From Nemertoderma westbladi (taxonomy: Eukaryota; Animalia; Xenacoelomorpha), in NCBI GenBank assembly GCA_032718475.1, contig JAUCBJ010003174.1:1-64000 (forward strand): a DNA stretch of 64,000 bases, read 5' to 3'. The translations under genes and the position numbers were made by a program. Positions 7,387 to 64,000 of this stretch are shown piece by piece (position 1 is the stretch's first letter; every line of letters starts with the position of its first letter). The notes under the pieces are model-generated. The model ran no database searches. It worked only from the letters and a program-made list of their open reading frames with translations, and was not told where the DNA came from.

Positions 7387-7567
7387 GATGAGTGGATGAA
7401 CTGTCAGCGAAACTGGTTGTATCTCGAATCGATATTCAGCGCCCCTGATATCCAAAGACAATTGCCTGCCGAAGCCAAGATGTTTATGCAGGTGGATAAA
7501 AGCTGGAAGGATATAATGAGAAAAACGAACAGATTGCCCAACGCAATGCGAGCCGCAACCCTACCTG
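7387..7567 (+). CDS. DNAH6: Dynein heavy chain exon 2 in window
   Basis: ttcag|GAT GAG TGG...CCT G|gtaagt; DEWMNCQRNWLYLESIFSAPDIQRQLPAEAKMFMQVDKSWKDIMRK...PNAMRAATLP, very close to recalled human DNAH6. Confidence 0.92.
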
Positions 7568-8441
7568 GTAAGTCTAACTCAATGCGAGCCGCAACCCTAC
7601 CTGGTAAGTCTAACTCAATGCGAGCCGCAACCCTACCTGGTAAGTCTAACTCAATGCGAGCCGCAACCCTACCTGGTAAGTCTAACTCAATGCGAGCTGC
7701 AACCCTACCTGGTAAGTCTAACTCAATGCGAGCTGCAACCCTACCTGGTAAGTCTAACTCAATGCGAGCCGCAACCCTACCTGGTAAGTCTAACTCAATG
7801 CGAGCTGCAACCCTACCTGGTAAGGCAACCCTACCTGGTAAGTCTAACTCAATGCGAGCTGCAACCCTACCTGGTAAGTCTAACTCAATGCGAGCCGCAA
7901 CCCTACCTGGTAAGTCTAACTCAATGCGAGCTGCAACCCTACCTGGTAAGTCTAACTCAATGCGAGCCGCAACCCTACCTGGTAAGTCTAACTCAATGCG
8001 AGCCGCAACCCTACCTGGTAAGTCTAACTCAATGCGAGCTGCAACCCTACCTGGTAAGTCTAACTCAATGCGAGCCGCAACCCTACCTGGTAAGTCTAAC
8101 TCAATGCGAGCTGCAACCCTACCTGGTAAGTCTAACTCAATGCGAGCTGCAACCCTACCTGGTAAGTCTAACTCAATGCGAGCCGCAACCCTACCTGGTA
8201 AGTCTAACTCAATGCGAGCTGCAACCCTACCTGGTAAGTCTAACTCAATGCGAGCCGCAACCCTACCTGGTAAGTCTAACTCAATGCGAGCTGCAACCCT
8301 ACCTGGTAAGTCTAACTCAATGCGAGCTGCAACCCTACCTGGTAAGTCTAACTCAATGCGAGCTGCAACCCTACCTGGTAAGTCTAACTCAATGCGAGTT
8401 GCAACCCTACCTGGTAAGTCTAACTCAATGCGAGCTGCAAC
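7544..8441 (+). repeat. 36-bp tandem array of the exon-2 donor junction, ~25 copies
   Basis: Unit aatgcgagccgcaaccctacctg|gtaagtctaactc = 23 nt of exon + 13 nt of intron; one shortened unit near 7825. Confidence 0.97.
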
Positions 8442-8587
8442 CGCTCACATAGTTTGCCACGCTTTGCCGCCCTTCGCCACTCATAGTTTTGTAGAATTTA
8501 TAACAGAGATATCTGAACAGATTGAATGATACTTGTACTCTTTATTTTATGCCTAACAGTTATTTATTAAAATTATATTTATTATAG

Positions 8588-8730
8588 GACTTTTGGAAAC
8601 ATTTAAGACCAACAACACATTGTTAGACCAAATAATGAAATGTTTGGAGCAATATCTGGAATCCAAGCGGGCTTTGTTTCCGAGATTCTATTTCCTTTCT
8701 AACGACGAATTACTCGAGATTCTAGCTCAG
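8588..8730 (+). CDS. DNAH6: Dynein heavy chain exon 3 in window
   Basis: tatag|GA CTT TTG GAA...GCT CAG|gtctgt; GLLETFKTNNTLLDQIMKCLEQYLESKRALFPRFYFLSNDELLEILAQ contains the canonical dynein FPRFYFLSNDELLEIL motif; phases match both neighbours. Confidence 0.93.
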
Positions 8731-8830
8731 GTCTGTAACTTTTTGTTTAGGTCTTTAACCTTTCCGCTCAGGTTTGAAACTTTTTCACTTTGGTCTGTAA
8801 CTTTTCCACTCAGGTTTGTAACTTTTCTTC
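8726..8830 (+). repeat. Degenerate ~21-bp repeats of the exon-3 donor, ~5 copies, filling most of a 113-bp intron
   Basis: ctcag|gtctgtaactttt, tttag|gtctttaacctt, ctcag|gtttgaaacttt, ctttg|gtctgtaactttt, ctcag|gtttgtaactttt. Confidence 0.75.
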
Positions 8831-8843
8831 CCTTTGTTTATAG

Positions 8844-9036
8844 ACCAGGAACCCCCACGCCGTTCAGCCTCATCTACGTAAATGTTTCGACGCCATCGCG
8901 CTGCTGGAGTTCGGCGGCGGTGATGCCGGGGAAACTGGTGGCGATCAGCTGGCCAAGACGGTTTCGAACGACATCCTCGCCATGATCAGTCCTGAGAAAG
9001 AGAGAGTCAGTCTGGGGAAGGGGTTGAAAGCACGGG
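8844..9036 (+). CDS. DNAH6: Dynein heavy chain exon 4 in window
   Basis: tatag|ACC AGG AAC CCC...GCA CGG G|gtgcgt; TRNPHAVQPHLRKCFDAIALLEF...DILAMISPEKERVSLGKGLKAR. Confidence 0.92.
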
Positions 9037-12000
9037 GTGCGTATTGGTTGCTATGGGAGGGGGTTGAAAGCACGGGGTGCGTATTGGTTGCTATGGGAGG
9101 GGGTTGAAAGCACGGGGTGCGTATTGGTTGCTATGGGAGGGGGTTGAAAGCACGAGGTGCGTATTGGTTGCTATGGGAGGGGGTTGAAAGCACGAGGTGC
9201 GTATTGGTTGCTATGGGAGGGGGTTGAAAGCACGGGGTGCGTATTGGTTGCTATGGGAGGGGGTTGAAAGCACGAGGTGCGTATTGGTTGCTATGGGAAG
9301 GGGTTGAAAGCACGGGGTGCGTATTGGTTGCTATGGGAGGGGGTTGAAAGCACGGGGTGCGTATTGGTTGCTATGGGAGGGGGTTGAAAGCACGAGGTGC
9401 GTATTGGTTGCTATGGGAGGGGGTTGAAAGCACGGGGTGCGTATTGGTTGCTATGGGAGGGGGTTGAAAGCACGGGGTGCGTATTGGTTGCTATGGGAGG
9501 GGGTTGAAAGCACGAGGTGCGTATTGGTTGCTATGGGAAGGGGTTGAAAGCACGGGGTGCGTATTGGTTGCTATGGGAGGGGGTTGAAAGCACGAGGTGC
9601 GTATTGGTTGCTATGGGAAGGGGTTGAAAGCACGGGGTGCGTATTGGTTGCTATGGGAGGGGGTTGAAAGCACGGGGTGCGTATTGGTTGCTATGGGAGG
9701 GGGTTGAAAGCACGAGGTGCGTATTGGTTGCTATGGGAGGGGGTTGAAAGCACGGGGTGCGTATTGGTTGCTATGGGAGGGGGTTGAAAGCACGAGGTGC
9801 GTATTGGTTGCTATGGGAAGGGGTTGAAAGCACGGGGTGCGTATTGGTTGCTATGGGAGGGGGTTGAAAGCACGGGGTGCGTATTGGTTGCTATGGGAAG
9901 GGGTTGAAAGCACGAGGTGCGTATTGGTTGCTATGGGAGGGGGTTGAAAGCACGGGGTGCGTATTGGTTGCTATGGGAGGGGGTTGAAAGCACGAGGTGC
10001 GTATTGGTTGCTATGGGAGGGGGTTGAAAGCACGGGGTGCGTATTGGTTGCTATGGGAGGGGGTTGAAAGCACGAGGTGCGTATTGGTTGCTATGGGAGG
10101 GGGTTGAAAGCACGAGGTGCGTATTGGTTGCTATGGGAGGGGGTTGAAAGCACGGGGTGCGTATTGGTTGCTATGGGAGGGGGTTGAAAGCACGAGGTGC
10201 GTATTGGTTGCTATGGGAGGGGGTTGAAAGCACGGGGTGCGTATTGGTTGCTATGGGAGGGGGTTGAAAGCACGAGGTGAGTATTGGTTGCTATGGGAGG
10301 GGGTTGAAAGCACGGGGTGCGTATTGGTTGCTATGGGAGGGGGTTGAAAGCACGGGGTGCGTATTGGTTGCTATGGGAGGGGGTTGAAAGCACGAGGTGC
10401 GTATTGGTTGCTATGGGAGGGGGTTGAAAGCACGGGGTGCGTATTGGTTGCTATGGGAGGGGGTTGAAAGCACGAGGTGAGTATTGGTTGCTATGGTAGG
10501 GGGTTGAAAGCACGGGGTGCGTATTGGTTGCTATGGGAAGGGGTTGAAAGCACGAGGTGCGTATTGGTTGGTATGGGAGGGGGTTGAAAGCACGGGGTGC
10601 GTATTGGTTGCTATGGGAGGGGGTTGAAAGCACGGGGTGCGTATTGGTTGCTATGGGAAGGGGTTGAAAGCACGGGGTGCGTATTGGTTGCTATGGGAGG
10701 GGGTTGAAAGTACGGGGTGCGTATTGGTTGCTATGGGAGGGGGTTGAAAGCACGGGGTGCGTATTGGTTGCTATGGGAGGGGGTTGAAAGCACGAGGTGC
10801 GTATTGGTTGCTATGGGAGGGGGTTGAAAGCACGGGGTGCGTATTGGTTGCTATGGGAGGGGGTTGAAAGCACGGGGTGCGTATTGGTTGCTATGGGAGG
10901 GGGTTGAAAGCACGAGGTGCGTATTGGTTGCTATGGGAGGGGGTTGAAAGCACGGGGTGCGTATTGGTTGCTATGGGAGGGGGTTGAAAGCACGAGGTGC
11001 GTATTGGTTGCTATGGGAGGGGGTTGAAAGCACGGGGTGCGTATTGGTTGCTATGGGAAGGGGTTGAAAGCACGAGGTGCGTATTGGTTGGTATGGGAGG
11101 GGGTTGAAAGCACGGGGTGCGTATTGGTTGCTATGGGAGGGGGTTGAAAGCACGAGGTGCGTATTGGTTGCTATGGGAAGGGGTTGAAAGCACGGGGTGC
11201 GTATTGGTTGCTATGGGAGGGGGTTGAAAGCACGGGGTGCGTATTGGTTGCTATGGGAAGGGGTTGAAAGCACGAGGTGCGTATTGGTTGGTATGGGAGG
11301 GGGTTGAAAGCACGGGGTGCGTATTGGTTGCTATGGGAGGGGGTTGAAAGCACGAGGTGCGTATTGGTTGCTATGGGAGGGGGTTGAAAGCACGGGGTGG
11401 GTATTGGTTGCTATGGGAGGGGGTTGAAAGCACGAGGTGCGTATTGGTTGCTATGGGAGGGGGTTGAAAGCACGAGGTGCGTATTGGTTGCTATGGGAGG
11501 GGGTTGAAAGCACGGGGTGGGTATTGGTTGCTATGGGAGGGGGTTGAAAGCACGAGGTGCGTATTGGTTGCTATGGGAGGGGGTTGAAAGCACGGGGTGC
11601 GTATTGGTTGCTATGGGAGGGGGTTGAAAGCACGAGGTGAGTATTGGTTGCTATGGTAGGGGGTTGAAAGCACGGGGTGCGTATTGGTTGCTATGGTAGG
11701 GGGTTGAAAGCACGGGGTGCGTATTGGTTGCTATGGGAGGGGGTTGAAAGCACGAGGTGCGTATTGGTTGCTATGGGAGGGGGTTGAAAGCACGGGGTGC
11801 GTATTGGTTGCTATGGGAGGGGGTTGAAAGCACGAGGTGAGTATTGGTTGCTATGGTAGGGGGTTGAAAGCACGGGGTGCGTATTGGTTGCTATGGGAAG
11901 GGGTTGAAAGCACGAGGTGCGTATTGGTTGCTATGGGAGGGGGTTGAAAGCACGGGGTGCGTATTGGTTGCTATGGGAGGGGGTTGAAAGCACGGGGTGC

Positions 12001-15000
12001 GTATTGGTTGCTATGGGAGGGGGTTGAAAGCACGAGGTGCGTATTGGTTGCTATGGGAGGGGGTTGAAAGCACGAGGTGCGTATTGGTTGCTATGGGAGG
12101 GGGTTGAAAGCACGGGGTGCGTATTGGTTGCTATGGGAGGGGGTTGAAAGCACGGGGTGCGTATTGGTTGCTATGGGAGGGGGTTGAAAGCACGGGGTGC
12201 GTATTGGTTGCTATGGGAGGGGGTTGAAAGCACGGGGTGCGTATTGGTTGCTATGGGAGGGGGTTGAAAGCACGGGGTGCGTATTGGTTGCTATGGGAGG
12301 GGGTTGAAAGCACGAGGTGCGTATTGGTTGCTATGGGAGGGGGTTGAAAGCACGGGGTGCGTATTGGTTGCTATGGGAGGGGGTTGAAAGCACGGGGTGC
12401 GTATTGGTTGCTATGGGAGGGGGTTGAAAGCACGAGGTGCGTATTGGTTGCTATGGGAGGGGGTTGAAAGCACGGGGTGCGTATTGGTTGCTATGGGAGG
12501 GGGTTGAAAGCACGGGGTGCGTATTGGTTGCTATGGGAGGGGGTTGAAAGCACGGGGTGCGTATTGGTTGCTATGGGAGGGGGTTGAAAGCACGGGGTGC
12601 GTATTGGTTGCTATGGGAGGGGGTTGAAAGCACGGGGTGCGTATTGGTTGCTATGGGAGGGGGTTGAAAGCACGAGGTGCGTATTGGTTGCTATGGGAGG
12701 GGGTTGAAAGCACGAGGTGCGTATTGGTTGGTATGGGAGGGGGTTGAAAGCACGAGGTGCGTATTGGTTGCTATGGGAGGGGGTTGAAAGCACGAGGTGC
12801 GTATTGGTTGCTATGGGAGGGGGTTGAAAGCACGAGGTGCGTATTGGTTGCTATGGGAGGGGGTTGAAAGCACGAGGTGCGTATTGGTTGCTATGGGAGG
12901 GGGTTGAAAGCACGAGGTGCGTATTGGTTGCTATGGGAGGGGGTTGAAAGCACGAGGTGCGTATTGGTTGCTATGGGAGGGGGTTGAAAGCACGAGGTGC
13001 GTATTGGTTGCTATGGGAAGGGGTTGAAAGCACGAGGTGCGTATTGGTTGCTATGGGAGGGGGTTGAAAGCACGAGGTGCGTATTGGTTGCTATGGGAGG
13101 GGGTTGAAAGCACGAGGTGCGTATTGGTTGCTATGGGAGGGGGTTGAAAGCACGAGGTGCGTATTGGTTGCTATGGGAGGGGGTTGAAAGCACGAGGTGC
13201 GTATTGGTTGCTATGGGAGGGGGTTGAAAGCACGAGGTGCGTATTGGTTGCTATGGGAGGGGGTTGAAAGCACGAGGTGCGTATTGGTTGCTATGGGAGG
13301 GGGTTGAAAGCACGAGGTGCGTATTGGTTGCTATGGGAGGGGGTTGAAAGCACGAGGTGCGTATTGGTTGCTATGGGAGGGGGTTGAAAGCACGAGGTGC
13401 GTATTGGTTGCTATGGGAGGGGGTTGAAAGCACGAGGTGCGTATTGGTTGCTATGGGAGGGGGTTGAAAGCACGAGGTGCGTATTGGTTGCTATGGGAGG
13501 GGGTTGAAAGCACGGGGTGCGTATTGGTTGCTATGGGAGGGGGTTGAAAGCACGAGGTGCGTATTGGTTGCTATGGGAGGGGGTTGAAAGCACGAGGTGC
13601 GTATTGGTTGCTATGGGAGGGGGTTGAAAGCACGAGGTGCGTATTGGTTGCTATGGGAGGGGGTTGAAAGCACGAGGTGCGTATTGGTTGCTATGGGAGG
13701 GGGTTGAAAGCACGAGGTGCGTATTGGTTGCTATGGGAAGGGGTTGAAAGCACGAGGTGCGTATTGGTTGCTATGGGAGGGGGTTGAAAGCACGAGGTGC
13801 GTATTGGTTGCTATGGAAGGGGGTTGAAAGCACGAGGTGCGTATTGGTTGCTATGGGAGGGGGTTGAAAGCACGAGGTGCGTATTGGTTGCTATGGGAGA
13901 GGGTTGAAAGCACGAGGTGAGTATTGGTTGCTATGGGAGGGGGTTGAAAGCACGGGGTGCGTATTGGTTGGTATGGGAGGGGGTTGAAAGCACGAGGTGC
14001 GTATTGGTTGGTATGGGAAGGGGTTGAAAGCACAGGGTGCGTGTTGGTTGCTATGGGAAGGGGTTGAAAGCACGGGGTGCGTATTGGTTGCTATGGGAGG
14101 GGGTTGAAAGCACAGGGTGCGTATTGGTTGCTATGGGAAGGGGTTGAAAGCACGAGGTGCGTATTGGTTGGTATGGGAAGGGGTTGAAAGCACGAGGTGC
14201 GTATTGGTTGCTATGGAAGGGGGTTGAAAGCACGAGGTGAGTATTGGTTGCTATGGAAGGGGGTTGAAAGTACGAGGTGAGTATTGGTTGCTATGGGAGG
14301 GGGTTGAAAGCACGGTGTGCGTATTGGTTGGTATGGGAAGGGGTTGAAAGCACGAGGTGCGTATTGGTTGCGATGGTAGGGGGTTGAAAGCACGGGGTGC
14401 GTATTGGTTGCTATGGGAGGGGGTTGAAAGCACGGGGTGCGTATTGGTTGCTATGGGAAGGGGTTGAAAGCACGGGGTGCGTATTGGTTGGTATGGGAGG
14501 GGCTTGAAAGCACAAGGTGCGTATTGGTTGCTATGGGAGGGGGTTGAAAGCACGAGGTGCGTATTGGTTGCTATGGGAAGGGGTTGAAAGCACGGGGTGC
14601 GTATTGGTTGCTATGGGAGGGGCTTTAAAGCACGAGGTGAGTATTGGTTGCTATGGGAGGGGGTTGAAAGCACGGGGTGCGTATTGGTTGGTATGGGAAG
14701 GGGTTGAAAGCACGAGGTGCGTATTGGTTGCGATGGTAGGGGGTTGAAAGCACGGGGTGCGTATTGGTTGCTATGGGAGGGGGTTGAAAGCACGATGTGC
14801 GTATTGGTTCTATGGGAGGGGGTTGAAAGCACGAGGTGCGTAAGCCTATTGGTTGCTATGGGTGGGTGTTGAAGGGAAGATGTGAGTATTAGTTGCTATG
14901 GAAATGGGTTAAAGGGAAGAGGTTGTATTGGTTGTTATACGAAGGGGTTAAATGGACGTGGTGCATATTGGTTGCTATGGAAATGGGTTGAAGAGAAGAA

Positions 15001-15045
15001 GTGCGTATTGTTTGCTATGGGATGGGGTTAAATGCATATTGGTTG
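9013..15045 (+). repeat. 40-bp tandem array of the exon-4 donor junction, ~146 regular copies plus a few degenerate distal copies
   Basis: Unit tgggagggggttgaaagcacg(g/a)g|gtgcgtattggttgcta; makes up nearly all of the 6-kb intron; variants increase after ~13850 and copies are degenerate from ~14840. Confidence 0.97.
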
Positions 15046-15085
15046 ATGTCTGTATTTTCTATATTAATGAACTTTTTTTTTGTAG

Positions 15086-15216
15086 GAAATGTTGAAGATT
15101 GGCTTGGTAAAGTTGAAGAGTCGATGGTTGTCTCACTAAGGAAATTAACGAAACTCTCGTTAACAGATTACATGATGAGAAGCCGGGAAGAGTGGTTAAT
15201 ACTCCATCCATCCCAG
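15086..15216 (+). CDS. DNAH6: Dynein heavy chain exon 5 in window (last one found)
   Basis: tgtag|GA AAT GTT GAA GAT TGG...TCC CAG|gtaaag; GNVEDWLGKVEESMVVSLRKL...HPSQ continues LKAR|G in phase 1. Confidence 0.92.
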
Positions 15217-16309
15217 GTAAAGTGGTTAATAGTCCATCCATCCCAGTTAAACTGGTTAATACTCCATCCATCCCAGGTAATGTGGTTAATACTCCATCCA
15301 TCCCAGGTAAATTGGTTAATACTCCATCCATCCCAGGTAAACTGGTTAATACTCCATCCATCCCAGGTAAAGTGGTTAATACTCCATCCATCCCAGGTAA
15401 ATTGGTTAATACTCCATCCATCCCAGGTAAAGTGGTTAATAGTCCATCCATCCCAGTTAAACTGGTTAATAATCCATCCATCCCAGGTAAAGTGGTTTAA
15501 TACTCCATCCATCCCAGGTAAATTGGTTAATATTCCATCCATCCCAGGTAAAGTGGTTAATAGTCCATCCATCCCAGTTAAACTGGTTAATACTCCCTCC
15601 ATCCCAGGTAAACTGGTTAATACTCCATCCATCCCAGGTAAACGGGTTAATACTCCATCCATCCCAGGTAAAGTGGTTAATACTCCATCCATCCCAGGTA
15701 AAGTGGTTAATACTCCATCCATCCCAGGTAAACTGGTTAATAGTCCATCCATCCCAGGTAAATTGGTTAATACTCCATCCATCCCAGGTAAAGTGGTTAA
15801 TAGTCTATCCATCCCAGTTAAACTGGTTAATACTCCATCCATCCCAGGTAAACTGGTTAATAGTCCATCCATCCCAGGTAAATTGGTTAATACTCCATCC
15901 ATCCCAGTTAAACTGGTTAATGCTCCATCCATCCCAGGTAAAGTGGTTAATACTCCATCCATCCCAGGTAAAGTGGTTAATAGTCCATCCATCCCAGGTA
16001 AATTGGTTAATACTCCATCCATCCCAGGTAAAGTGGTTAATACTCCATCCATCCCAGATAAAGTGGTTAATAGTCCGTTCATCCCAGGTAAATTGGTTAA
16101 TACTCCATCCATCCCAGGTAAAGTGGTTAATACTCCATCCATCCCAGGTAAAGTGGTTAATACTCCATCCATACCAGGTAAAGTGGTTAATAGTCTATCC
16201 ATCCCAGGTAAACTGGTTAATAGTCCATCCATCCCAGGTAAAGTGGTTAATAGTCCATCCATCCCAGTTAAACTGGTTAATACTCCCTCCATCCCAGGTA
16301 AACTGGTTA
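15191..16309 (+). repeat. 30-bp tandem array of the exon-5 donor junction, ~37 copies
   Basis: Unit agtggttaatactccatccatcccag|gtaa; one 1-bp insertion near 15497; ends abruptly at the HPS6-like ORF. Confidence 0.97.
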
Positions 16310-19435: not shown

Positions 19436-19756
19436 CTGAGTAAATAAATGAAACGATTTCTCCACGTCCAAACACGATTTACTAAAGAGAATCACAGTAG
19501 CCAATGAGTAGGTGCCATCGCAGTGGGTAGCCGGGCTGTTGGAACCAATCAGCATAAAGGGATTCCCGTGGGCCCGTTTACCCAACACAGGGTAAACCAG
19601 TGGGTGGGCGTGTTTACCCAGAGCGAGTCCGTCCACCAGGCAGTCTATATAGACCTCGACCTCTCGGTCCTGTCGACTTTCACTGAAGTTGATTGCTAAG
19701 TGGAACCACCGTTGTCGTGGCAACACGTTCGAGATTGCTGACTTGGAATAAATCGT
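19436..19756 (-). CDS. LYST: LYST exon (ConA-like region), last LYST exon found
   Basis: ttag|ACG ATT TAT...ACT CAG|gtgggt, 107 codons: VLPRQRWFHLAINF...YSLATVILFS...FHLFTQ. Confidence 0.75.
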
Positions 19757-19856
19757 CTAATTTGAAAAAAAAGCGATAAAAATAATGGAAAATGGCTATA
19801 GAGGCTGAACAATATATTTAATTGAACTTACATCATTCTCTATAAATAGAACTTAC

Positions 19857-20382
19857 GTCATTATTTAATCCGTTGGCTAATCGAAACAAAACCGAACCGC
19901 AAGTCGGCGAAACCCACAACTCAAAGAGAAGGGAGGCGTTGCCCACGGCAACTACACGCAGACAATCCTCGACGCTGATTGGCGGAAAGGAAGGTAATTT
20001 GGTCTCCTTAGGATGGCTGGTATCCAGCCGTAACCATAGAGACAAGGACATTCCCTTGTCGCGCAGAGGCCAAGTCAGGTTCTTAGTTAAAGGCAGTAGC
20101 AGACAGGCAGGAGGGCAGCCAATGGCGACAGCCGGTAGAATCCCCTCGGAGGGGGTTGCTGGGGGGTTTATAGGAAACCGAAAGTAATACTCGGGAATAA
20201 CTTTAATATTTGTTACTACGTGAAGAGCCAATGAAACCACTTTATCGGCGCTGCAACCGGGAGTGTTTATCCAATTAACGATGGATGCCCATTGGTCGAC
20301 GCTAATTGTCACTTCGGTTAAACGACCAATCAAATCACAAAGAGCGTTTTGGACAGATTCGTTTGTTTCTCCAATCATAAAT
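19857..20382 (-). CDS. LYST: LYST exon
   Basis: ttag|A TTT ATG...AAT GAC|gtaagt; WPLRDKGMSLSLWL and VGNASLLFELWVSP resemble the LYST ConA-like start; splice phases are consistent. Confidence 0.8.
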
Positions 20383-20852
20383 CTAAAACAATGTATTTTT
20401 TATACAACCAAAACACTAAGCCCATATAATTAGTAATTAATTCCTACATATAATAATTAATATACGAGACTAACCGTACATAGTAAATCTTGGTGATCCA
20501 TTAATAACAAAACTAGTTAGTTGCATTCTAAATGTAAGACGCGCCTCCTGTCTACCTTTCACGTGCTACACGAAAGCCCAACCCATTTTATTTTACTAGA
20601 AAAGCTAGCAATCTGGGTCAAAAGGAAACTGCCTAATAAACAATACACAAAAAGACCTGACCCGGGATCGAACCCGGTACTTTCCCTTCTTAAGTATGGC
20701 GAGTGAGCAATCAGAGATAAATCACCAGAACAACAACATTTTTTAGTGTACTTCTTTCTTACAACTACCTCTATAAAGAGGCAGTTACGTTATAATTTGA
20801 GACGTTTAATTACACTTGAGTCTAGGCCCATTTGGCGTAAAAAATAGTTCAC

Positions 20853-21078
20853 CTTTCAAACATGGCGATAAGACGATCAGCAGTTCCAGAATTATAGAGG
20901 ATTTTACAATTATCTTCTGATTGGTCAATAATATCGCGTATATTGTTAAGCAAACTGGACACATGTTTGACCTCTGGGCTCGATTGAATTAGATCCAGAC
21001 ACAGATTGACCAATTGTGGCCACAGCAGAAGGTGACCATGGTAATGGGATTCAGTAATACTGGGAGGAAGGTAACAAT
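20853..21078 (-). CDS. LYST: LYST exon
   Basis: tttcag|AT TGT...GAA AG|gtgaac; HLLLWPQLVNLCLDLI...NCKILYNSGTADRLIAMF. Confidence 0.78.
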
Positions 21079-21164
21079 CTGAAATTGAAAGGGAAAATTA
21101 AAATGTTAAAACAAATCAATGGAAATATTAATAATTATAAACAGTGTCTCGCACTATTCGAATA

Positions 21165-21796
21165 GATATCACCTACTCTCTGATTCACATGGACCTATAG
21201 GGCAGTACTGTTCGTACAGACATCACCTACTCTCTGATTCACATAGACCTATAGAGCAGTACTGTTCGTACAGACATCACCTACTCTCTGATTCACATAG
21301 ATGATAGACCTATAGGGCAGTACTGTTCGTACAGATATAACCTACTCTCTGATTCACATAGACCTATAGGGCAGTACTGTTCGTACAGACATCACCTACT
21401 CTCTGATTCACATAGACCTATAGAGCAGTACTGTTCGTACAGACATCACCTACTCTCTGATTCACATAGACCTATAGAGCAGTACTGTTCGTACAGACAT
21501 CACCTACTCTCTGATTCACATAGACCTATAGAGCAGTACTGTTCGTACAGACATCACCTACTCTCTGATTCACATAGACCTATAGAGCAGTACTGTTCGT
21601 ACAGACATCACCTACTCTCTGATTCACATAGACCTATAGAGCAGTACTGTTCGTACAGACATCACCTACTCTCTGATTCACATAGACCTATAGAGCAGTA
21701 CTGTTCGTACAGACATCACCTACTCTCTGATTCCAGATTCACATAGACCTATAGAGCAGTACTGTTCGTACAGACATCACCTACTCTCTGATTCAC
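21165..21796 (-). repeat. 54-bp tandem array of a LYST donor junction, ~11-12 copies
   Basis: Minus-strand unit GTGAATCAGAGA|gtaggtgatgtctgtacgaacagtactgctctataggtctat = 12 nt of exon + 42 nt of intron. Confidence 0.93.
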
Positions 21797-21959
21797 AATC
21801 TCCATCCCACCCGGAATCGAATCCTCCGGAATCCGCCCGCTCGCTTTCCGATGAACAACTTTCCGCCGGAGTTCCGTCGTCGACATCTCTTGATTCAGTT
21901 GATCGAGTTATCCTCTCGTTGTCATGGGAACGACATTCATCCTGGTTACTCCTGTGGCA
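21785..21959 (-). CDS. LYST: LYST exon
   Basis: cgcag|TGC CAC...GAG A|gtaggt; acidic segment ending GFDSGWDGDCESE; phase 1 matches the next exon. Confidence 0.75.
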
Positions 21960-22039
21960 CTGCGAAGCGAATAGAAACAGAATGTAATTAATTCTCACGA
22001 AAAAATAAAATATGTTTTAAAAAGTAGAAAGAGTACAGG

Positions 22040-23300
22040 TTGTGAGGCCTTCACTATTACTAGGTCGACCAAGCTCGGGCAGTGGTAATGAGATACTTCC
22101 ATGCTTCCCGTTTATCCATAATTGTCGCAATTTCGTTTTTCTCAAATACAGTATCCGTTTCAAGTTGGTCTATATACACTATGTTACAGCTGGTATTATA
22201 GCCCCAGATGGTATCCATTTTTGATGGAGCTGCTACCCATGCCTTTGCTTTCCTAGCTTCTATGTCTTTTTTGCTGCTCTCTATCCATGATCCAAGGTAC
22301 TGGAAGTCGTCGACCTTCCTTAGTTGATTATTATCAATAATTGTGGTCCAAGGTTACATCAACATTAAAAGTCATGAATTCGGTCTTGGTAGCATTTATA
22401 GGCAATCAATCCTCCTCAGCAGCCCTCTCCACTTTATTCAATAGAAGCTGTGCATCTGCTAGAGCATTAGAGAGCAGGGCGATTTCGTCCGCCAAGTCGG
22501 ATGCTGTTGTCCCACTTTTTGTTTATAAGGATGTAATCCAGCTGTGCTTTGGTTCCATTAAGGTATTGAAAGGTCCATAGCTTCCTCTTTCTCTTTTCGA
22601 ATGTGTTGTTTGTTGGTATCAATTCACACTCTTCCATTAGGTCTAAGAGTAAGCACCCATAGGTGTTATAGGTGTGACCCTTGATGTATTCTGGGACAAT
22701 TTGCGCATTCAGGTCATAAGCAATGACTTTGACATTGTGTTTTGGAATGTCCTTTTTAAGTCCAGTCAGATCTTCTTAAAACATGACTGCTTGTTCTGAT
22801 TCTGAGGCATTTGGTGGCACTGTAGCAACATATAACTGTTGTCTTGGGATTCCCATCAAATGTTGCAATCATGACCCTGGAATTTATAGCTTCGAGGATG
22901 TTTAGGGTATGAAGTGCAAATGGGATTAGCAGAATTCCTACACCACCAATTCATGCATTGGCCGAATTTCTTTCTGCTGAGTTTGTTACAAACTTCCATC
23001 CATTTTCCAATGTCATTGTGGCAGTATCTTCATGACAAATCCAAAGTTCTTGAATGCAGATGATGTCAATATTATATTCAATTTCCAGAGCTACCATATC
23101 ACCCGGTTTACTATGTGCTTTCAGTGTGAGTGCGCTCATTGTAGAAATCTTCAGTGTCTTTTTACATTTCAACAGGTTAGTTCTTCTTTCTTCTGTTCCA
23201 GTGGCCGATTTGTCGACCCCAGATGGTGTACCACTGAGGGAAGCGGTCCTTGTTGACCCGAGCGTCAACCGAGCCGGTATTTCTCCTTCACATACTAAGT
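22040..23300 (-). mobile_element. Decayed, internally deleted non-LTR retrotransposon (APE endonuclease plus RT thumb remnants, RTE-like)
   Basis: KISTMSALTL...IDIICIQE endonuclease motif near 23150-23040; VDDFQYLGSWI...RKAKAW near 22310-22235; multiple stops and frameshifts. Confidence 0.7.
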
Positions 23301-23641
23301 AAGTGAACCTTATCATACAGTGTTTTATCGGTTTAAAGAGGCCAAATAGGAATTTTCAACAGCGTGAAAACTCTGAAACGGTGATCGCGATTTGCGGGCA
23401 AATCGACCTTGAAGGAAATCCTCTGTAATTTTCAAAACCTCTACTTTTTCCTCGAGTTTCCTCTACTACACGTATTTCTACAAAATTGACCTGTTGATGA
23501 GATGAAGACATTCTAACATTGAGTTGGACAGACAGGCAAACAACAGACAGTACCGACATGGCCAGCATTAAAGCTGTGTGAGAAGGTTCAGTGACTTAGT
23601 GGTTCGATCCAGAAGCAAAACAAAGGGCGAACTTAACTTAC

Positions 23642-23803
23642 AGCAACACAAGTGAATCGACGCCGAGTCAATGCGTACGAAGATTGGTGTGTAACACTGC
23701 AGTAGAGGAGAATCCGACAAATAGAGAATCCCTGATACGTAGACAAAATATCCGAGTCGGAGTAAACCAAAGTAAACACAGAGATGAGACCGTCTATGGA
23801 TGA
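23642..23803 (-). CDS. LYST: LYST exon (weakly conserved)
   Basis: ttccag|TCA TCC...GTT GCT|gtaagt, 54 codons, phase 0/0 fits both neighbours. Confidence 0.6.
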
Positions 23804-24100
23804 CTGGAAAATATATAAACTGATACAATGAAAAATTTGTTGAAAATGAGATAATTACACTAAATAATTTCGAGGCAAGGTGTTTAAATAGAAAGAAGAT
23901 TCAATGTAGAAATACGAAGGTGTCAATATTGGACCCAATTGAGTGCAGTATGAGCCCTGCTGAAAAGGCCCGTACAACGCAGGAAATTTCTTCAACACCG
24001 AAGTTGTCGTTGTTGAGACCTTCATTTTTCAACATTAAATATCATTTTATTTAGTAATAAAATAATCGATTAATATGTAAAACATAAACTATGAATAAAC

Positions 24101-24245
24101 CTTAGATTTATAAGAACAACATCGTGTATACAATGAGACCAGTGTTGCCAAAAGAAACACGCTGTCCGAGAATGGATTCTGAGAGTCCCCTGTAGATAAA
24201 TACGATGATGACTTTAGACTCTCCCATGACGATGGCTTCTCGAAT
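24101..24245 (-). CDS. LYST: LYST exon
   Basis: gtgtag|A TTC GAG...TCT AAG|gtttat; open frame, phase 2/0 fits neighbours. Confidence 0.65.
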
Positions 24246-24666
24246 CTACACAATAAATACAATTCGCGGATAACTATGGTGACAAATGGATCGCCGCATA
24301 TTATTTTTGTTTCCCTAATCGTCACTCAATTTGTATAACCTTTTATAACTTTGAACCCTATCGTTTAAGGGTTCTCTTTTATGGAAATTAAAAATTATCT
24401 AAATTGTAGTGAATGAAAATAGCAAGTCAATTAACTCAATTTTGATGGGCGCGGTTTCTTCTTTGTTTGATATGTATAGATGGTTAATTATTAATTAAAA
24501 TAATATGTTTTAAACACTTCTATAAAGCATAAATTTGTGCCGGTAATAATTACTCATTTGTTTTATAATTTATTATAATATCATTTGTTTTGACGCAAAT
24601 CGAATCTCGTCTCATTGTTGAATTATCAATCAAGGGGAGTAGTACCCGCATTTTATTCATACAAAC

Positions 24667-25262
24667 TAGGGATGTGGCGAATGTCCGCATGATTTTTCGC
24701 ATCCGCATTCGCATCCGCACCAATGGTATGCGGATGTGACATGCGGATGTTACATGCACTGTTCAAGCATCCTGTCTGAAGGCCCAGCAACCACTCAATT
24801 AAATTTTCAATAATAATTACTTTTTCCCTTATGAAATATTTTTTATTTTATCTTAAAATTATCAAAATATAAAATATCAAAATTATTTCTTACTACTTAT
24901 TTCTTTTATCAACTTGGCCAGATGCAAAATAAACTACTGTACTGTAATATGCCAGGGCCTAATGTCCCAATACCTCATGACGACCACTCACATGACCTAC
25001 GACGCATTACTGGGCAGCCTATGTCCATGAATAGGCATAGATGGAACTGTTCTATAACCTTAGACTCTTGTTAGTTTATTAATATAAGATTAGAATATAA
25101 TATTAAAATGCTGGTATAACCTTGATGTAAAAGGGAGGCCAGGCAAAAATATATATGTTTTAATAGACATCCGCATCCGCATCCGTGCGGATGTCACCTC
25201 AGCCATATGCATCCGCATCTGCATCCGCGGATGTTAAAAATATGACATTCGCAACATCCCTA
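24667..25262. mobile_element. hAT (Ac-like) non-autonomous element
   Basis: TIRs TAGGGATGTGGCGAATGTC / GACATTCGCAACATCCCTA, 8-bp TSD ATACAAAC on both sides, subterminal CCGCAT repeats. Confidence 0.88.
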
Positions 25263-25532
25263 ATACAAACTAAACTACTATTAAGCCTCGGTACCCTTTT
25301 AGAACACATCAGATTACTTTATACCAGAATACTTTAAACTACAAACCACGTACGAGAAAAAGTCCCAGAATTCCCCATCACAGTATGCCCAACGTTACCG
25401 GTACTTTTCAATCATCAGAACTCAGCCCTTAGCTGTATTCTCTCTGCAAACAATATATTGGACTCATCTATTCCGAAAGCGATGTGTAGGCCTATTGGTA
25501 TTATTGGAGATCCGTATTATAAAATCACCCAC

Positions 25533-25670
25533 CTGCAGTAATAGGCGACGTCACGGAGGGCTGAGAGACAACTCGATTCAACGTTAAGGTTAATGAATCT
25601 TCGCTGGAAGTAGGAAGATTCAATAAACAGCTGGTAGGCACAATGCCAAACGTCGCAGATCACGCCAAAT
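25533..25670 (-). CDS. LYST: LYST exon
   Basis: ttag|A TTT GGC...TGC AG|gtgggt; CDVWHCAYQLFIESSYFQRRFINL parallels recalled human LYST [24 protein letters not shown]. Confidence 0.85.
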
Positions 25671-35500: not shown

Positions 35501-35533
35501 AATAATAGAGTCACACGCCCACTCCGAACGATA

Positions 35534-52035: not shown

Positions 52036-52107
52036 GCCGCTAGCTGAATGGTTAGAGCGTCAGACTTCGAACCCGGGGGTCACCTGTTCGATCCCACCTG
52101 GACGTCA
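52036..52107 (+). pseudogene. tRNA-like sequence (TCG at the anticodon position), probably a pseudo-tRNA or SINE head
   Basis: TAGCTGAATGGTTAGAGCG D-arm and GTTCGATCCC T-loop, but acceptor and anticodon stems pair poorly. Confidence 0.55.
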
Positions 52108-55763: not shown

Positions 55764-58288
55764 CGTTTTGCGTTGGAACTCCCTTCTATGTCGCTTCCAA
55801 ATTCACTTCCGGACCAGATGGTTTCGGATTCCGTGAAGTACGAATCGGTGGCGCTGAGCTGCGACACTGTTCCGTCGCTGTCATCGCCGCTGGAAACCTC
55901 GTGGGAATCCACAGCAACGCGATCCATAGCAACGCGACGAGTCTGGTCGGAGGCAGGAACCCGCGACTGTTTGGCGGGTCGCCGCGGTTTCCGGCGACCT
56001 CGACGAGCCAACATGAATACGGGCTGGCTGAAGTCCTCGTTGAATCGAACCTTGGGAGTAGTGAGGATGTCTATAAAGCAGTCGGTGACCTGGAGACGGA
56101 GCATCTTCGCCATGGCAACCGAACGCAGTCCCCCGTCCGCCGAGAGAATGAGGATTTTAAAGAGTCGGAGGATCACAGCGCGGAGTTTTCCGATGAAAAC
56201 GAGTTTAATGAAGTGGAGTGGCATTACCATGGCAGCGAGGTCGTGTTGGATGGTGGGGGAAACGAGAACGCAAGGGAGGGAACGAAATAACGAGTGGATC
56301 ACAGGATGACGGGGTGGGTGGGGGGACGTTCCGTCGTGCTGATGAAGGGGGTTGGAACGGTGTTTGGATGACGAGAGCGGATCGGTTAGACGTAGCAACG
56401 CCGGTCGGTAGACCATGTAGAAGAGGGAGGCGTTGAAAGTATCGCTCGCTCGGGATACTAAGTATATGAGGTGGTAGGAGACCTCGGTGACGATGAGATC
56501 CTCACCGGGACTGTCTTCGTCGCCCTCTAACGGGAGGTTGGGGAACAGTAAGGCGGCGTAACCGTCGGCGACCGCGTCCCACCGCCGGTGTCGGTGATCC
56601 GATACCGTGGATTCGTAGGCGGAGTCGGAGTCGGACATGGTTCCGGTGCAGACGCCACACAGCCGGGCCCCGGGTCCGCCCGCCCCGCCGCCCAGACCCT
56701 CCAGGACCAGCTGGGTGACCACCGCCAGGACTCTGCAGACCCGGGCGTCGTTGCCTAGCAATGGGAGTAGGGAGAGGAGGGGGAGGAGTACCGAGTCTGG
56801 GGCCGCGCAGCAGCAGACGCCGCAACGGGAGAGCGCCTCAACGGCGAGTAGCGCGGTGGCGCAGGGGTCAGCCGGCGGAGTAGCGAACCTGTCGGCCGGT
56901 GCAGTGGTGAACTTGTCAGCCGGCGCAGTAGCGAACCTGTCAGCCGACACCGTGGCGCACCGGTCGGCCGGCGCAGTGGCGCAACGGTCGGCCGGCGCAG
57001 CAGTGGCTATCAGTGTGAGGAAACAGTCACAGATCGATGCGACCGAACATTTCGCACCGCCGCCGGGTGGCACAATCGACGATGTTGTCCCCCCGCTTGG
57101 GGGAGCATCCCGCAAGCTGCTGCATACATTGTGGTGGTGGTGGTGGTGTGATGAGAAATCGCACCGGCGGTGGAACCGTTTCATACACGTCATCGCGTGG
57201 ATGTAGTCTACCTTGAAGGCTTTTAGTGACGTGACGAGGGAACTCAGGGATGACATGAGAGTGCGCTTGAGATGCTGTAGGTTCTGTACGAAACCATGCG
57301 CCTTGTCGTTTGGATTTCTGCGATCCGAATTAATCGGAACTGTATCCGGTGGATATCGTAGGTTACAGATCGAATCGCTCTCTCGAATATCTTTCGACGT
57401 AAAAGCGAATATCCTGGTGAATGCATCCGGTGACCTAATCGGTGGATCTGGCGAGGTAAGTTTCGGGGTTGTAGATCCACTCCTTGAACGTTTGCGGCTT
57501 GCGTTTGTCAACTCTTGCGTTGTGTGAGTTTCCGATTCAAAAGATGGGAGATTTACAATTTCTACCTCCTGCTCAATTGATGTTGGACTTTTTGGCTCTT
57601 TTGATGTTGGACTTTTTGGCTCTTTTGATGTTGGACTTTTTGGCTCATTCGATGTTGGACTTTGTGGCTCATTTGATGTTGGACTTTGTGGTTCATTTGA
57701 TGTTGGACTTTTAGGCTCTGTTGATGTTGGACTTTTAGGCTCTTTTGATGTTGGACTTTTTGGCTCTTTTGATGTTGGACTTTTTGGCTCATTTGATGTT
57801 GGACTTTGTGGCTCATTTGATGTTGGACTTTGTGGCTCATTTGATGTTGGACTTTTAGGCTCTGTTGATGTTGGACTTTTAGGCTCTTCTGATGTTGGAC
57901 TTTTTGGCTCTTTTGATGTTGGACTTTTAGGCTCTGTTGATCTTGAACTCTGTCGTTCTTTCTTGAGTGTGGAACTTTGAGACTCTAATGCTGATAGCGT
58001 TGAGACTTCTGAATCCACTTGAGTAGTGGGAATTGGAACTTCGTGGGGTCTGGGACTTTCCCCTGTTGCTGATGTAAGATTCGTGTCTGGGTGCCTATCT
58101 GTCTCCCTTAATGGTCCAACAAGGCGTTCATTAACAAGGCTGTCTGACATATTCAAATCATTTGCGACATCGGAAGTAGAGGTGAGACTGCCAACATCAA
58201 CGTGACTCTCATCCGATACTCTTGTAGATTTATGTAAGGCAATCTGGTTGATGGATTGTATACAAGTCATAACGAGAGTGAGACCGCC
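55764..58288 (-). CDS. LYST: LYST large exon (2525 nt) with internal 24-bp coding repeats
   Basis: cacag|GGC GGT CTC...AAA CG|gttagt; CGVCCC..P..VL.PLL and RWDA motifs as in LYST; phase 2 matches the exon at 25670, defining a 30-kb intron. Confidence 0.85.
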
Positions 58289-59106
58289 CTGTGAAACAAA
58301 ATGGGATAACTTCAACAAAGGGTGGTCAAATATTACATAATAAATATTAATTTGCTTAATTACTTAATGTAATTATTGGCTTACGTGTTGTAATTTACGG
58401 TTAATTTCTTTCAAAAACAAAACAGTGAATATCATTTAGAACAATTTTTAAACACAAAAGGCCTTTTAAAAAAGGCTATTATTATGTTTTTATACAAAAT
58501 AACTATATTTGTTGCAAAGAAAACATTTAGGCCAATAACAAATTCCCTCAGACACAGAGATGGATTTTTTGAAGTAAAATTAATTGCTCTCAGAGACGTG
58601 GTTTTTTCACATGCTCTTTCACATGAAACAAGCGAATACGGAAAAAAAATTCTGAGTCGCCAACCCCGGCCCATTAACCCAGTGAGCGATGTCAATTACA
58701 AGTAGTTTTCGATGAAATACTTGATTTTAGCCACCATTTTTTGAATAAAAGCAGTGCAATCTTCATTCCTGAAACGTAAAAGGGCAATTTAATGGAATAA
58801 AAAACGCGAAATCGCGCAAAGGTCCGCGTCTACTAACGCATGAACTGTCTCCTTGAATGACTTACTACCAATCGTAATACCAAAAAATATTCATTCACCA
58901 AGAGATTGAACACGGGGTACCGTCGCTCTACTAAAGTCAAACGCTCTACCAACTTCGCCACTGCGCCGTATGAAGCCTTACAAAACTAAAACACAACAGG
59001 AAATTAAGAACAACACCAACAGCGGGTGCCTCTTGATGTCTCGCTATCCCGGACCTAATAATAATATAAACTATGGATTTAACTGAAAATATTGATTGTA
59101 TTTTAC

Positions 59107-59409: not shown

Positions 59410-59754
59410 CTAAGGTCTTGCCATATGGTATCCACCTACCTGAATATAACATATTGACAGAACTTAATTTGGTTACAAATTCCATCAAAACTGCCATCAC
59501 AGTCTTTATCGTGTCCAATTCGATAAGTTCGAGATTCACTATTGTCAAAGACAGTAAAATTCTCAAAACCATTCGTTGGGTGGGGTAAACATCTCTAGCG
59601 GCAAGCGTGTCACTGTCGGAAGTGACGTCATCAATTTTACTAAGAATCTTGGCGATTTTCGGTAATATCCTTTGGGCCACGTCATTATCACGACGGGTTG
59701 AGTAGTCATAGCAACATATCTTCTCCAGAACCGATAGCATTACTTGGCACAATT
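59410..59754 (-). CDS. LYST: LYST exon (most 5' in window)
   Basis: tctag|AA TTG TGC...TTA G|gtaagg; LCQVMLSVLEKICCYD and QRMVLRILL parallel recalled LCHVLLSLLEKVCKFD and QRMLFRTVL. Confidence 0.88.
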
Positions 59755-59844
59755 CTAGAATAATACAAACATATCGTAGTATAAAACGTAGAAGGCTTTA
59801 ACGTTCAACCGTGAAGTTCAACGTTAAATAAATAATGTGTTAAA

Positions 59845-62800
59845 CTAACAATGGGGGACCGACACACTAACCAATGGGAGATCGATAAACTAACCAATTA
59901 GGGACCGGACCGATAACCTAACCAATGGGAGATCGATAAAATAACTAATGGGAGGTTGATAAACTAACCAATGGGAGATCGATAAATTAACCAATGGGAG
60001 ATCGATAAATTAACCAATGGGAGATCGATAAATTAACCAATGGGAGATCGATAAAATAACCAATGGGAGATCGATAAACTAACCAATAGGAGATCGATAA
60101 ATTAACCAATGGGAGATCGATAAACTAACCAATGGGAGATCGATAAACTAACCAATGGGAGATCGATAAACTAACCAATGGTAGATCGATAAACTAACCA
60201 ATGGGAGTTCGATAAAGTAACCAATAGGAGATCGATAAACTAACCAATGGGAGATCGATAAACTAACCAATGGGAGATCGATAAAATAACCAATGAGTGT
60301 TCGATAAAGTAACCAATAGGAGATCGATAAACTAACCAATGGTAGATCGATGAACTAACCAATGGGAGATCGATAAACTAACCAATGGGAGATCGATAAA
60401 CTAACCAATGGGAGTTCGATAAACTAACCAATGGGAGATCGATAAACTAACCAATGAGAGATCGATAAACTAACCAATGGGAGTTCGATAAACTAACCAA
60501 TGGGAGATCGATAAACTAACCAATGGGAGATCGATAAACTAACCAATGGGAGATCGATAAACTAACCAATGAGAGTTCGATAAAGTAACCAATAGGAGAT
60601 CGATAAACTAACCAATGGTAGATCGATGAACTAACCAATGGGAGATCGATAAACTAACCAATGGGAGTTCGATAAACTAACCAATGGGAGATCGATAAAC
60701 TAACCAATGAGAGATCGATGAACTAACCAATGGGAGATCGATAAACTAACCAATGGGAGATCGATAAACTAACCAATGGGAGATCGATAAACTAACCAAT
60801 GAGAGTTCGATAAAGTAACCAATGGTAGATCGATAAACTAACCAATGGGAGATCGATAAACTAACCAATGGGAGATCGATAAACTAACCAATGGGAGATC
60901 GATAAACTAACCAATGGGAGATCGATAAACTAACCAATGGGAGATCGATAAAGTAACCAATGGGAGATCGATAAACTAACCAATGGGAGATCGATAAACT
61001 AACCAATGGGAGATCGATAAACTAACCAATGGGAGATCGATAAACTAACCAATGGGAGATCGATAAACTAACCAATGGGAGTTCGATAAACTAACCAATG
61101 GGAGATCGATAAACTAACCAATGGAAGATCGATAAACTAACCAATGGGAGTTCGATAAACTAACCAATGGGAGATCGATAAACTAACCAATGGGAGATCG
61201 ATAAACTAACCAATGGGAGATCGATAAACTAACCAATGGGAGATCGATAAACTAACCAATGGGAGTTCGATAAACTAACCAATGGGAGATCGATAAACTA
61301 ACCAATGGGAGATCGATAAACTAACCAATGGGAGTTCGATAAACTAACCAATGGGAGATCGATAAACTAACCAATGAGAGTTCGATAAAGTAACCAATAG
61401 GAGATCGATAAACTAACCAATGGTAGATCGATGAACTAACCAATGGGAGATCGATAAAATAACCAATGGGAGTTCGATAAACTAACCAATGGGAGATCGA
61501 TAAACTAACCAATGGGAGATCGATGAACTAACCAATGGGAGATCGATAAACTAACCAATGGGAGATCGATAAACTAACCAATGGTAGATCGATAAACTAA
61601 CCAATGGGAGATCGATAAACTAACCAATGGGAGATCGATAAACTAACCAATGAGAGATCGATAAACTAACCAATGGGAGATCGATAAACTAACCAATGAG
61701 AGTTCGATAAAGTAACCAATGGTAGATCGATAAACTAACCAATGGGAGATCGATAAACTAACCAATGGGAGATCGATAAACTAACCAATGGGAGATCGAT
61801 AAACTAACCAATGGGAGATCGATAAACTAACCAATAGGAGATCGATAAACTAACCAATGGGAGATCGATAAACTAACCAATGGGAGATCGATAAACTAAC
61901 CAATGGGAGATCGATAAACTAACCAATGGGAGATCGATAAACTAACCAATGGGAGATCGATAAACTAACCAATGGGAGATCGATAAACTAACCAATGAGA
62001 GTTCGATAAAGTAACCAATAGGAGATCGATAAACTAACCAATGGGAGATCGATGAACTAACCAATGGGAGATCGATAAACTAACCAATGGGAGTTCGATA
62101 AACTAACCAATGGGAGATCGATAAACTAACCAATGGGAGATCGATAAAGTAACCAATGGGAGATCGATAAACTAACCAATGGGAGATCGATAAACTAACC
62201 AATAGGAGATCGATAAACTAACCAATGGGAGATCGATAAACTAACCAATGGGAGATCGATAAACTAACCAATGGGAGATCGATAAACTAACCAATGGGAG
62301 ATCGATAAACTAACCAATAGGAGATCGATAAACTAACCAATAGGAGATCGATAAACTAACCAATGGGAGATCGATAAACTAACCAATGGGAGTTCGATAA
62401 ACTAACCAATGGGAGATCGATAAACTAACCAATGGGAGATCGATAAACTAACCAATAGGAGATCGATAAACTAACCAATGGGAGATCGATAAACTAACCA
62501 ATAGGAGATCGATAAACTAACCAATGGGAGATCGATAAACTAACCAATGGGAGATCGATAAACTAACCAATAGGAGATCGATAAACTACCCAATGGGAGA
62601 TCGATAAACTAACCAATGGGAGATCGATAAACTAACCAATAGGAGATCGATAAACTAACCAATGGGAGATCGATAAACTAACCAATGGGAGTTCGATAAA
62701 CTAACCAATGGGAGATCGATAAACTAACCAATGGGAGATCGATAAACTAACCAATGGGAGATCGATAAACTAACCAATGGGAGATCGATAAACTAACCAA

Positions 62801-64000
62801 TGGGAGATCGATAAACTAACCAATGAGAGTTCGATAAAGTAACCAATAGGAGATCGATAAACTAACCAATGGGAGATCGATGAACTAACCAATGGGAGAT
62901 CGATAAACTAACCAATGGGAGATCGATGAACTAACCAATGGGAGATCGATAAACTAACCAATGGGAGTTCGATAAACTAACCAATGGGAGATCGATAAAC
63001 TAACCAATGGGAGATCGATAAACTAACCAATGAGAGTTCGATAAAGTAACCAATGGTAGATCGATAAACTAACCAATGGGAGATCGATAAAGTAAACAAT
63101 GGGAGATCGATAAACTAACCAATGGGAGATCGATAAACTAACCAATGGGAGATCGATAAACTAACCAATGGGAGATCGATAAACTAAACAATGGGAGATC
63201 GATAAACTAACCAATGGGAGATCGATAAACTAACCAATGGGAGATCGATGAACTAACCAATGGGAGATCGATAAACTAACCAATGGGAGATCGATGAACT
63301 AACCAATGGGAGATCGATAAACTAACCAATGGGAGATCGATAAACTAACCAATGAGAGTTCGATAAAGTAACCAATAGGAGATCGATAAACTAACCAATG
63401 GGAGATCGATGAACTAACCAATGGGAGATCGATAAACTAACCAATGGGAGATCGATGAACTAACCAATGGGAGATCGATAAACTAACCAATGGGAGTTCG
63501 ATAAACTAACCAATGGGAGATCGATAAACTAACCAATGGGAGATCGATAAACTAACCAATAGGAGATCGATAAACTAACCAATGGGAGATCGATAAACTA
63601 ACCAATGGGAGTTCGATAAACTAACCAATGGGAGATCGATAAACTAACCAATGGGAGATCGATAAACTAACCAATGGGAGATCGATAAACTAACCAATGA
63701 GAGTTCGATAAAGTAACCAATAGGAGATCGATAAACTAACCAATGGGAGTTCGATAAACTAACCAATGGGAGATCGATAAACTAACCAATAGGAGATCGA
63801 TAAACTAACCAATAGGAGATCGATAAACTAACCAATGGGAGATCGATAAACTAACCAATGGGAGATCGATGAACTAACCAATGGGAGATCGATAAACTAA
63901 CCAATGGGAGTTCGATAAACTAACCAATGGGAGATCGATAAACTAACCAATGGGAGATCGATAAACTAACCAATGGGAGATCGATGAACTAACCAATGGG
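59845..64000 (-). repeat. 23-bp tandem array (~180 copies, runs off the window), probable donor-junction array of the upstream LYST exon
   Basis: Minus-strand unit TATCGATCTCCCATTG|gttagtt; degenerate copies lie at the acceptor-side end. Confidence 0.93.

Follow-up and report, generated by a model that had tools for sequence, protein, structure and literature searches.

Tandem repeats whose units run across exon-intron boundaries are known from amphioxus and from primates. In amphioxus, such minisatellites form a class named mirages, described since 2002 (PMC3087553); they occur in Adh3, in the globin genes BflGb6 and BflGb9, in troponin C and in PGBD5, where they lie at both kinds of boundary, leave splicing unharmed and are unstable in length, by a mechanism stated to be unclear (PMC3087553; PMC3902484). 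In humans, intron 7 of F7 carries a 37-bp variable number tandem repeat (VNTR), and mutagenesis with 50 F7 constructs showed that the most upstream donor wins (PMC1557585). Internal tandem repeats at the exon-intron boundaries of primate paralogues may create novel introns (PMC2812944). Here we describe a 64,000-nucleotide stretch of Nemertoderma westbladi DNA (contig JAUCBJ010003174.1 of assembly GCA_032718475.1, positions 1 to 64,000; hereafter the window), in which minisatellites straddle the 5' splice sites (donors) of DNAH6 on the plus strand and of a second gene on the minus strand. These arrays belong to the known class of mirages and the F7 VNTR: their units are of minisatellite size and run head to tail, the terminal unit holds the authentic exon-intron boundary (established by transcript contigs for three arrays and by homology or reading frame for two), the pseudo-sites are mostly kept, and splicing is normal in the three introns read from transcript contigs.

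Tandem Repeats Finder (TRF) recovered five minisatellites across donors, with units of 21-54 bp in 5-150 copies and a total length of 8,792 bp. In all five the periodicity begins within the exon and passes the GT (donors 7567, 8730, 9036 and 15216 on the plus strand, 21785 on the minus strand), in agreement with the original prediction, which had placed arrays on exactly these donors. Its estimate of about 13 kb of array also holds once the 23-bp array at the right end of the window is added (12,952 bp). The arrays, with a short duplication at a further donor, are the following.

7540..8442, plus strand: 36-bp donor array, about 25 copies, the GT kept in all 24 that lie downstream
8725..8827, plus strand: degenerate donor array of about 21 bp, 5 units (73%), filling nearly all of intron 8731-8843
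9015..15036, plus strand: 40-bp donor array, about 150 copies, 22 exon and 18 intron nucleotides per unit, about 6 kb
15191..16309, plus strand: 30-bp donor array, about 37 copies, 26 exon and 4 intron nucleotides per unit, GT intact in 29 of 36
21153..21797, minus strand: 54-bp donor array, about 12 copies, 12 exon and 42 intron nucleotides per unit, GT intact in 11 of 11
19826..19867, minus strand: two-copy 25-bp duplication of donor 19857, absent from the list of the original prediction
59841..64000, minus strand: 23-bp array, at least 181 copies, with its start beyond 64000 and so outside the window

The GT is also kept in all four downstream copies of the 21-bp array and in all 146 copies of the 40-bp array that were stepped through. 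Since the downstream GTs are mostly intact, the copies appear to be tolerated rather than purged, as expected if later copies are ignored. The arrays occupy short introns, with 145, 16, 49 and 74 nucleotides remaining up to the next acceptor. Donor 15216 is defined by homology and by an intron position common to 9 of 9 other DNAH6 loci, and donor 21785 by a six-exon reading frame, not by RNA. The 21-bp case is weak as a junction array: its exon share is only some 5-6 nucleotides, and GT..AG-like units make up the entire intron. As for the 23-bp array, it is a candidate sixth donor array. Its unit contains a donor-like site with 6 of 9 consensus matches, and the array ends 86 nucleotides before an acceptor shown by RNA; a transcript contig end at 59755 (run X4, see below) fits, weakly, the prediction from the unit that the exon ends in TG. 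The unit was not found in metagenome contigs.

The same junction test was applied throughout, asking of each junction whether a 16-base probe across it is repeated on one side only. Thirteen donors and 14 acceptors are definable in the window (one acceptor was probed off by one base, at 20381 for 20382). Repeats were found at 6 of the 13 donors, the duplication at 19857 included, at none of the 14 acceptors, and at 1.9% of non-exonic positions, an excess at donors of about 24-fold (46% versus 1.9%; binomial p 8e-8 against background, Fisher p 0.006 against acceptors). The proposal that 5 of 16 donors are affected is thus borne out as an excess, with its numbers revised, and that no acceptor in the window is straddled was correctly seen. 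Counted by array, with the 23-bp array excluded, 5 of 9 non-coding arrays (unit at least 20 bp, at least 4 copies) begin on a donor, where 0.08-0.14 would be expected; P is 5e-9 to 9e-8, which multiplied by 250,000 windows becomes 0.001-0.02. Taking only 10 kb as old DNA raises P to 1e-5 to 3e-5, which fails the 250,000-window correction. The window was chosen for looking extreme, so its rate overstates that of the genome, and it is generally prone to repeats: TRF also returned four long arrays away from junctions and in-frame arrays in coding sequence. The density of arrays in the window is unusual, the donor excess in it goes beyond chance, and something favours donors.

Use of the first donor copy was read from run X4, which is labelled 'DNA?' but whose contigs are spliced, and which was recognised as transcript-like from their joints. 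These contigs hold a GT..AG joint 8730/8844, so that intron 8731-8843 is skipped, and loose ends that join 7567, in the unique first unit, to 8588, and 9036 to 15086. The first donor copy is therefore used in all three testable introns, in one contig set, as had been supposed when the first donor was said to stay functional. No repeat-retaining transcript form was seen in this one assembly, in which minor forms are invisible, and contigs of this kind do not reveal rare use of downstream donor copies either; with the 36- and 30-bp units, such use would preserve the reading frame. First-donor use also settles how to read the earlier statement that the arrays always extend into the intron: this is what we see, but a tandem copy of the junction comes to lie in the intron because the first donor is used, and the statement follows trivially, with no separate evidence in it.

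That the arrays were made or inflated by the assembler is highly improbable. In short-read DNA contig runs from two samples (X1-X3), of which X1 may be the source of the window, depth rises sharply over the units. In X1 a level of about 30 climbs to about 1,900 over the 36-bp unit and to about 3,800 over the 40-bp unit; the corresponding values in X2 are 28, 127 and 437. The 23-bp array is likewise strongly multi-copy, and one short-read loose end continues the 36-bp repeat. The rise in X1 and X2 implies that the units are multi-copy in short reads, though contig depth is not equal to copy number and depth across the array ends varies among the three runs. Moreover, the arrays carry patterned variants among their units, and like structures are present in independent assemblies of other organisms. 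A hint in the other direction is that DNAH6 halts at the 30-bp array though its transcript goes on, and that a minus-strand open frame enters this array without a stop, which may indicate a misjoin near 16309. The donor arrays themselves are genuine.

Eighty loci encoding DNAH6 relatives were gathered, of which 30, with 168 introns, were used after intronless, single-exon and near-duplicate loci had been dropped. Arrays lie at 6 of the 168 donors (3.6%), at 2 of the 168 acceptors and at 1.2% of positions inside introns. Against this intron background the donors are enriched (p 0.015; in L007 the donor called by the script is probably about 9 nucleotides off, yet still within the unit) and the acceptors are not (p 0.59), and donors do not differ significantly from acceptors (Fisher p 0.28). 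Two further cases lie at contig ends: one more donor of L008 bears an array, its third, and an acceptor of L009 bears a near-perfect array of 66-bp units. L008 thereby has arrays at 3 of 3 DNAH6 donors (540-927, 1560-1931 and 2525-2722, with units of 67, 43 and 103 bp) in a 2.7-kb contig and is a second organism with comparable array density. L009 combines the 66-bp acceptor-straddling array with a 48-bp donor-straddling one in a single short contig (1-196 and 1138-1327). The donors orthologous to 7567 and 15216 carry arrays in two other loci each, with units of 43 and 48 and of 124 and 151, and the differing unit lengths at orthologous donors point to independent origins; the array-bearing loci also fall on separate branches of the tree. 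Comparison of orthologous introns therefore reveals recurrence at these two positions, but most orthologous donors in other loci bear no array. The feature is widespread among animals and leans to donors, and is neither exclusive to donors nor unique to this genome.

We favour, at a little better than even odds (about 0.55), an origin in which mirage-type minisatellites are born by slippage, survive because the first donor is used, and accumulate because the flanking splice signals slow their deletion. To begin with, 20-60 bp across an exon end would be duplicated, possibly at imperfect microhomology. Unequal exchange would then expand and homogenise the array, as minisatellite biology suggests, and the degenerate array ends fit this. 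With the first donor used, the protein would stay unchanged, as is seen for three introns here in one assembly and experimentally for human F7. An array on an acceptor would put a wrong copy first and would be purged more often, so that selection may account for the asymmetry between donors, where the first copy is correct, and acceptors. Purifying selection would hold the first unit, and 16-145 nucleotides separate the array from the next acceptor; a harmless deletion would then have to fall between two essential signals and would tend to leave seed units able to expand again. Arrays in free DNA, much of which is transposon-derived here, would be younger or would be lost whole.

Several observations weigh against this origin. 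A filter alone cannot lift donors over a neutral background, yet 6 of 13 donors stand against a background of 1.9%, and donors are where 5 of the 9 long non-coding arrays begin, the expected number being 0.08-0.14. On this account the excess would have to come from the proposed trapping step, and part of the surplus above the intron background still lacks an explanation. Slippage filtered by selection, the alternative that the original prediction had set beside its own mechanism, thus accounts for the asymmetry between donors and acceptors but not for this excess; together with selection, slippage needs one more ingredient: at exon ends, arrays must either be lost more slowly or be born more often. 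The RNA evidence is a single contig set, blind to rare use of downstream donors. In some first units the exon end and the intron end resemble each other imperfectly, but the microhomology test (73 of 130 matches versus 38.6 in shuffles) is inflated by diverged repeat copies and only suggestive.

The main rival is a mutation hotspot close to donors, at which putative transcription-coupled lesions (pausing, R-loops or nicks at exon-nucleosome edges) would seed duplications; it is a DNA-level form of the donor-targeted process first proposed. We think it unlikely, albeit with appreciable weight. It would readily yield the roughly 24-fold donor excess in the window and the roughly 3-fold one in other loci (3.6% versus 1.2%, p 0.015), the arrays at all three donors of L008, the two orthologous donors struck in three lineages each with unrelated unit lengths, and the young two-copy case at 19857. 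However, the breakpoints have no fixed register: the units end at no fixed distance from the GT, with exon shares of about 5-88 nucleotides and intron shares of 4 to about 100. The six donors against two acceptors among 168 do not differ significantly (p 0.28), and with 10 kb of old DNA the P value of the window (1e-5 to 3e-5) does not survive correction for 250,000 windows. A donor-targeted process therefore has in its favour the excess in the window, weaker in other DNAH6 loci, and against it the acceptor arrays of L009 and amphioxus and the four long non-junction arrays. The wider proposition, that 5' splice sites of animals are in general a hotspot of tandem duplication through a transcription-coupled lesion at exon ends, we regard as doubtful. 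If true, some lineages would seed minisatellites at up to half of their donors and inflate short introns fifty-fold, and the repeat would occasionally build a new intron itself, as it may have done in DNAH6.

The unit ends also bear on an origin by reiterative copying of an RNA template or by reverse splicing at the donor, in favour of which only the position of the arrays speaks. Spliceosomal cleavage falls exactly at the GT, yet 0 of 13 units begin or end there (first units inspected), and every unit consists of unspliced exon plus intron sequence. A spliceosome-coupled break or RNA-templated copying, as originally suggested, thus finds no direct support, and the RNA-templated form is highly improbable.

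The preserved donors within the arrays could also be read as adaptive decoys, that is, repeated U1 sites that aid splicing or suppress premature polyadenylation and for which arrays would be selected. In the 40-bp array all 146 copies agree in the GT columns and 79 differ in a neighbouring column, but the copies were located by anchoring on the donor, which biases the count. The loss of GT in 7 of 36 copies of the 30-bp array and the lack of an array at most orthologous donors elsewhere make this very unlikely. Somewhat less remote, but still quite unlikely, is a bias at birth towards exons, in which duplications favour GC-richer exons, those out of frame are purged, and junction-spanning ones that are correctly spliced stay, mostly at donors. 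Exons have a GC content of 38-59% and donor arrays of 38-55%, against 31-32% in the most AT-rich intron bins, and in-frame 24-bp coding arrays occur in a large exon of the minus-strand gene. The non-donor arrays, however, have similar GC (34-46%).

A repeat may also have built an intron. The 113-nucleotide DNAH6 intron 8731-8843 (plus strand) is made of five GT..AG-like units end to end, and all 11 other DNAH6 loci that are readable at this position lack an intron there (12 rows, with L009 out of register). Several of those loci have an intron 15 codons upstream, which is missing from the window. Judging from sequence comparison, this intron may be a lineage-specific gain from a tandem repeat. 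Intron gain from repeats is a route proposed in two of the papers above (PMC3087553; PMC2812944).

The exons of the two host genes are as follows.

5339..5551, plus strand: DNAH6 exon, found by tblastn with homologues; its donor has no array (internal negative)
7387..7567, plus strand: DNAH6 exon (tblastn); its last 24-28 nucleotides or so are the exon part of the 36-bp unit
8588..8730, plus strand: DNAH6 exon (tblastn and X4 contigs)
8844..9036, plus strand: DNAH6 exon (tblastn and X4 contigs)
15086..15216, plus strand: DNAH6 exon (tblastn and X4 contigs), the last detected in the window
25670-25533, 24245-24140, 21959-21785, 21078-20853, 20382-19857 and 19741-19436, minus strand: six predicted exons of the minus-strand gene (reading frame)
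59754-59440 and 59273-59107, minus strand: two exons of the minus-strand gene shown by RNA (X4 joints), their donors without arrays

In a tree of 38 DNAH6 fragments the sequence of the window joins neither the vertebrate nor the spiralian group, both of which are supported, and has no more precise placement. The minus-strand gene is real: spliced contigs support two of its introns, and the six-exon chain (19436..25670) is open over 492 amino acids with 0 stops and with GT-AG at every intron. It had been named LYST, a name that the homology searches did not uphold, as they found no LYST or BEACH homologue; a match to DUF4704 is weak and below the cut-off (E 0.029). The gene is at most presumed to be LYST-like, and the name is unconfirmed. 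Two in-frame 24-bp coding repeats lie in its large exon (56867-57000 and 57577-57949, minus strand). No later exon of this gene was found below 19436.

To the right of the 30-bp array, tblastn found no DNAH6 exon after 15216 in the remaining 48 kb, though the X4 contig continues for 1,592 bases. A minus-strand open frame of 442 amino acids (16311-17636) runs on to 15168 through the 30-bp array without a stop; the searches returned no homologue for it, and a presumed resemblance to HPS6 is unconfirmed. These observations point to a misjoin, a rearrangement or the nesting of genes near 16309, which leaves the left ends of the arrays unaffected.

Three of the long arrays were considered as junction arrays and set aside. 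The 53-bp array lies inside an inverted-repeat element (partner arm 18732-18750); the element, at 18730-19340, is like a miniature inverted-repeat transposable element. The 55-bp array (27490-30212, 49 copies) begins about 40 nucleotides past a putative minus-strand donor near 30250, with a fragment of its unit at 26225, and is adjoined by a foldback-like inverted repeat of about 540 bp (26167-27490). The 29-bp array (3216-4780, plus strand, 50 copies) has no detected exon at either end. An exon-like frame of 127 amino acids at 1261-1532 (plus strand) has no match to DNAH6 or in Pfam. The window further contains a Pao/BEL-type long terminal repeat (LTR) retrotransposon at 31300-45690 (minus strand), whose LTRs are near-identical and whose long open frames include Peptidase_A17, an integrase zinc finger and DUF5641. 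Broken frames at 49895-54200 (plus strand) may be of PRDM9/7 type, an unconfirmed resemblance based on KRAB-like, SET-like and C2H2 finger pieces. At 58560-59010 there are very high-copy interspersed repeats resembling short interspersed nuclear elements, where X1 depth reaches up to about 2,500 times that of the flanks.

A genome this dense in arrays could offer cases in sufficient number to tell a birth bias and slower loss apart, would allow first-donor scanning to be tested in a natural gene with as many as 150 identical competitors, and would let a possible intron gain from a repeat be examined. On the practical side, such arrays lengthen introns, their in-frame repeats look like exons and misguide gene prediction, and assembly errors are likely to occur at them. 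We found no genome-wide survey of donors versus acceptors in the literature searched, which did not cover subscription journals, and the accessible part of PMC10078293 contains nothing on junction-spanning units.

Compared with the amphioxus mirages, the arrays described here are alike in having boundary-spanning units within the 10-72 bp range, in leaving splicing unaffected and in occurring several to a gene region. They differ in that the resolved cases in the window are all at donors, whereas amphioxus has both donor and acceptor sides, and in size, one array here extending over about 6 kb with some 150 copies, where the amphioxus globins have 3-6. The likeness to the F7 VNTR is close: the first unit contains the exon-intron junction, the copies after it are intact pseudo-donors, and splicing takes place at the most upstream donor. 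F7, however, is one locus with 5-9 copies, whereas the arrays here involve 6 of 13 donors within 64 kb and first-donor use was read from contigs. With the boundary repeats of primates the arrays share the possibility of new introns, which is relevant to the 113-nucleotide intron; the primate cases lie in recent segmental duplications, often with repeat-retaining transcripts, whereas the genes here appear ordinary (PMC2812944).

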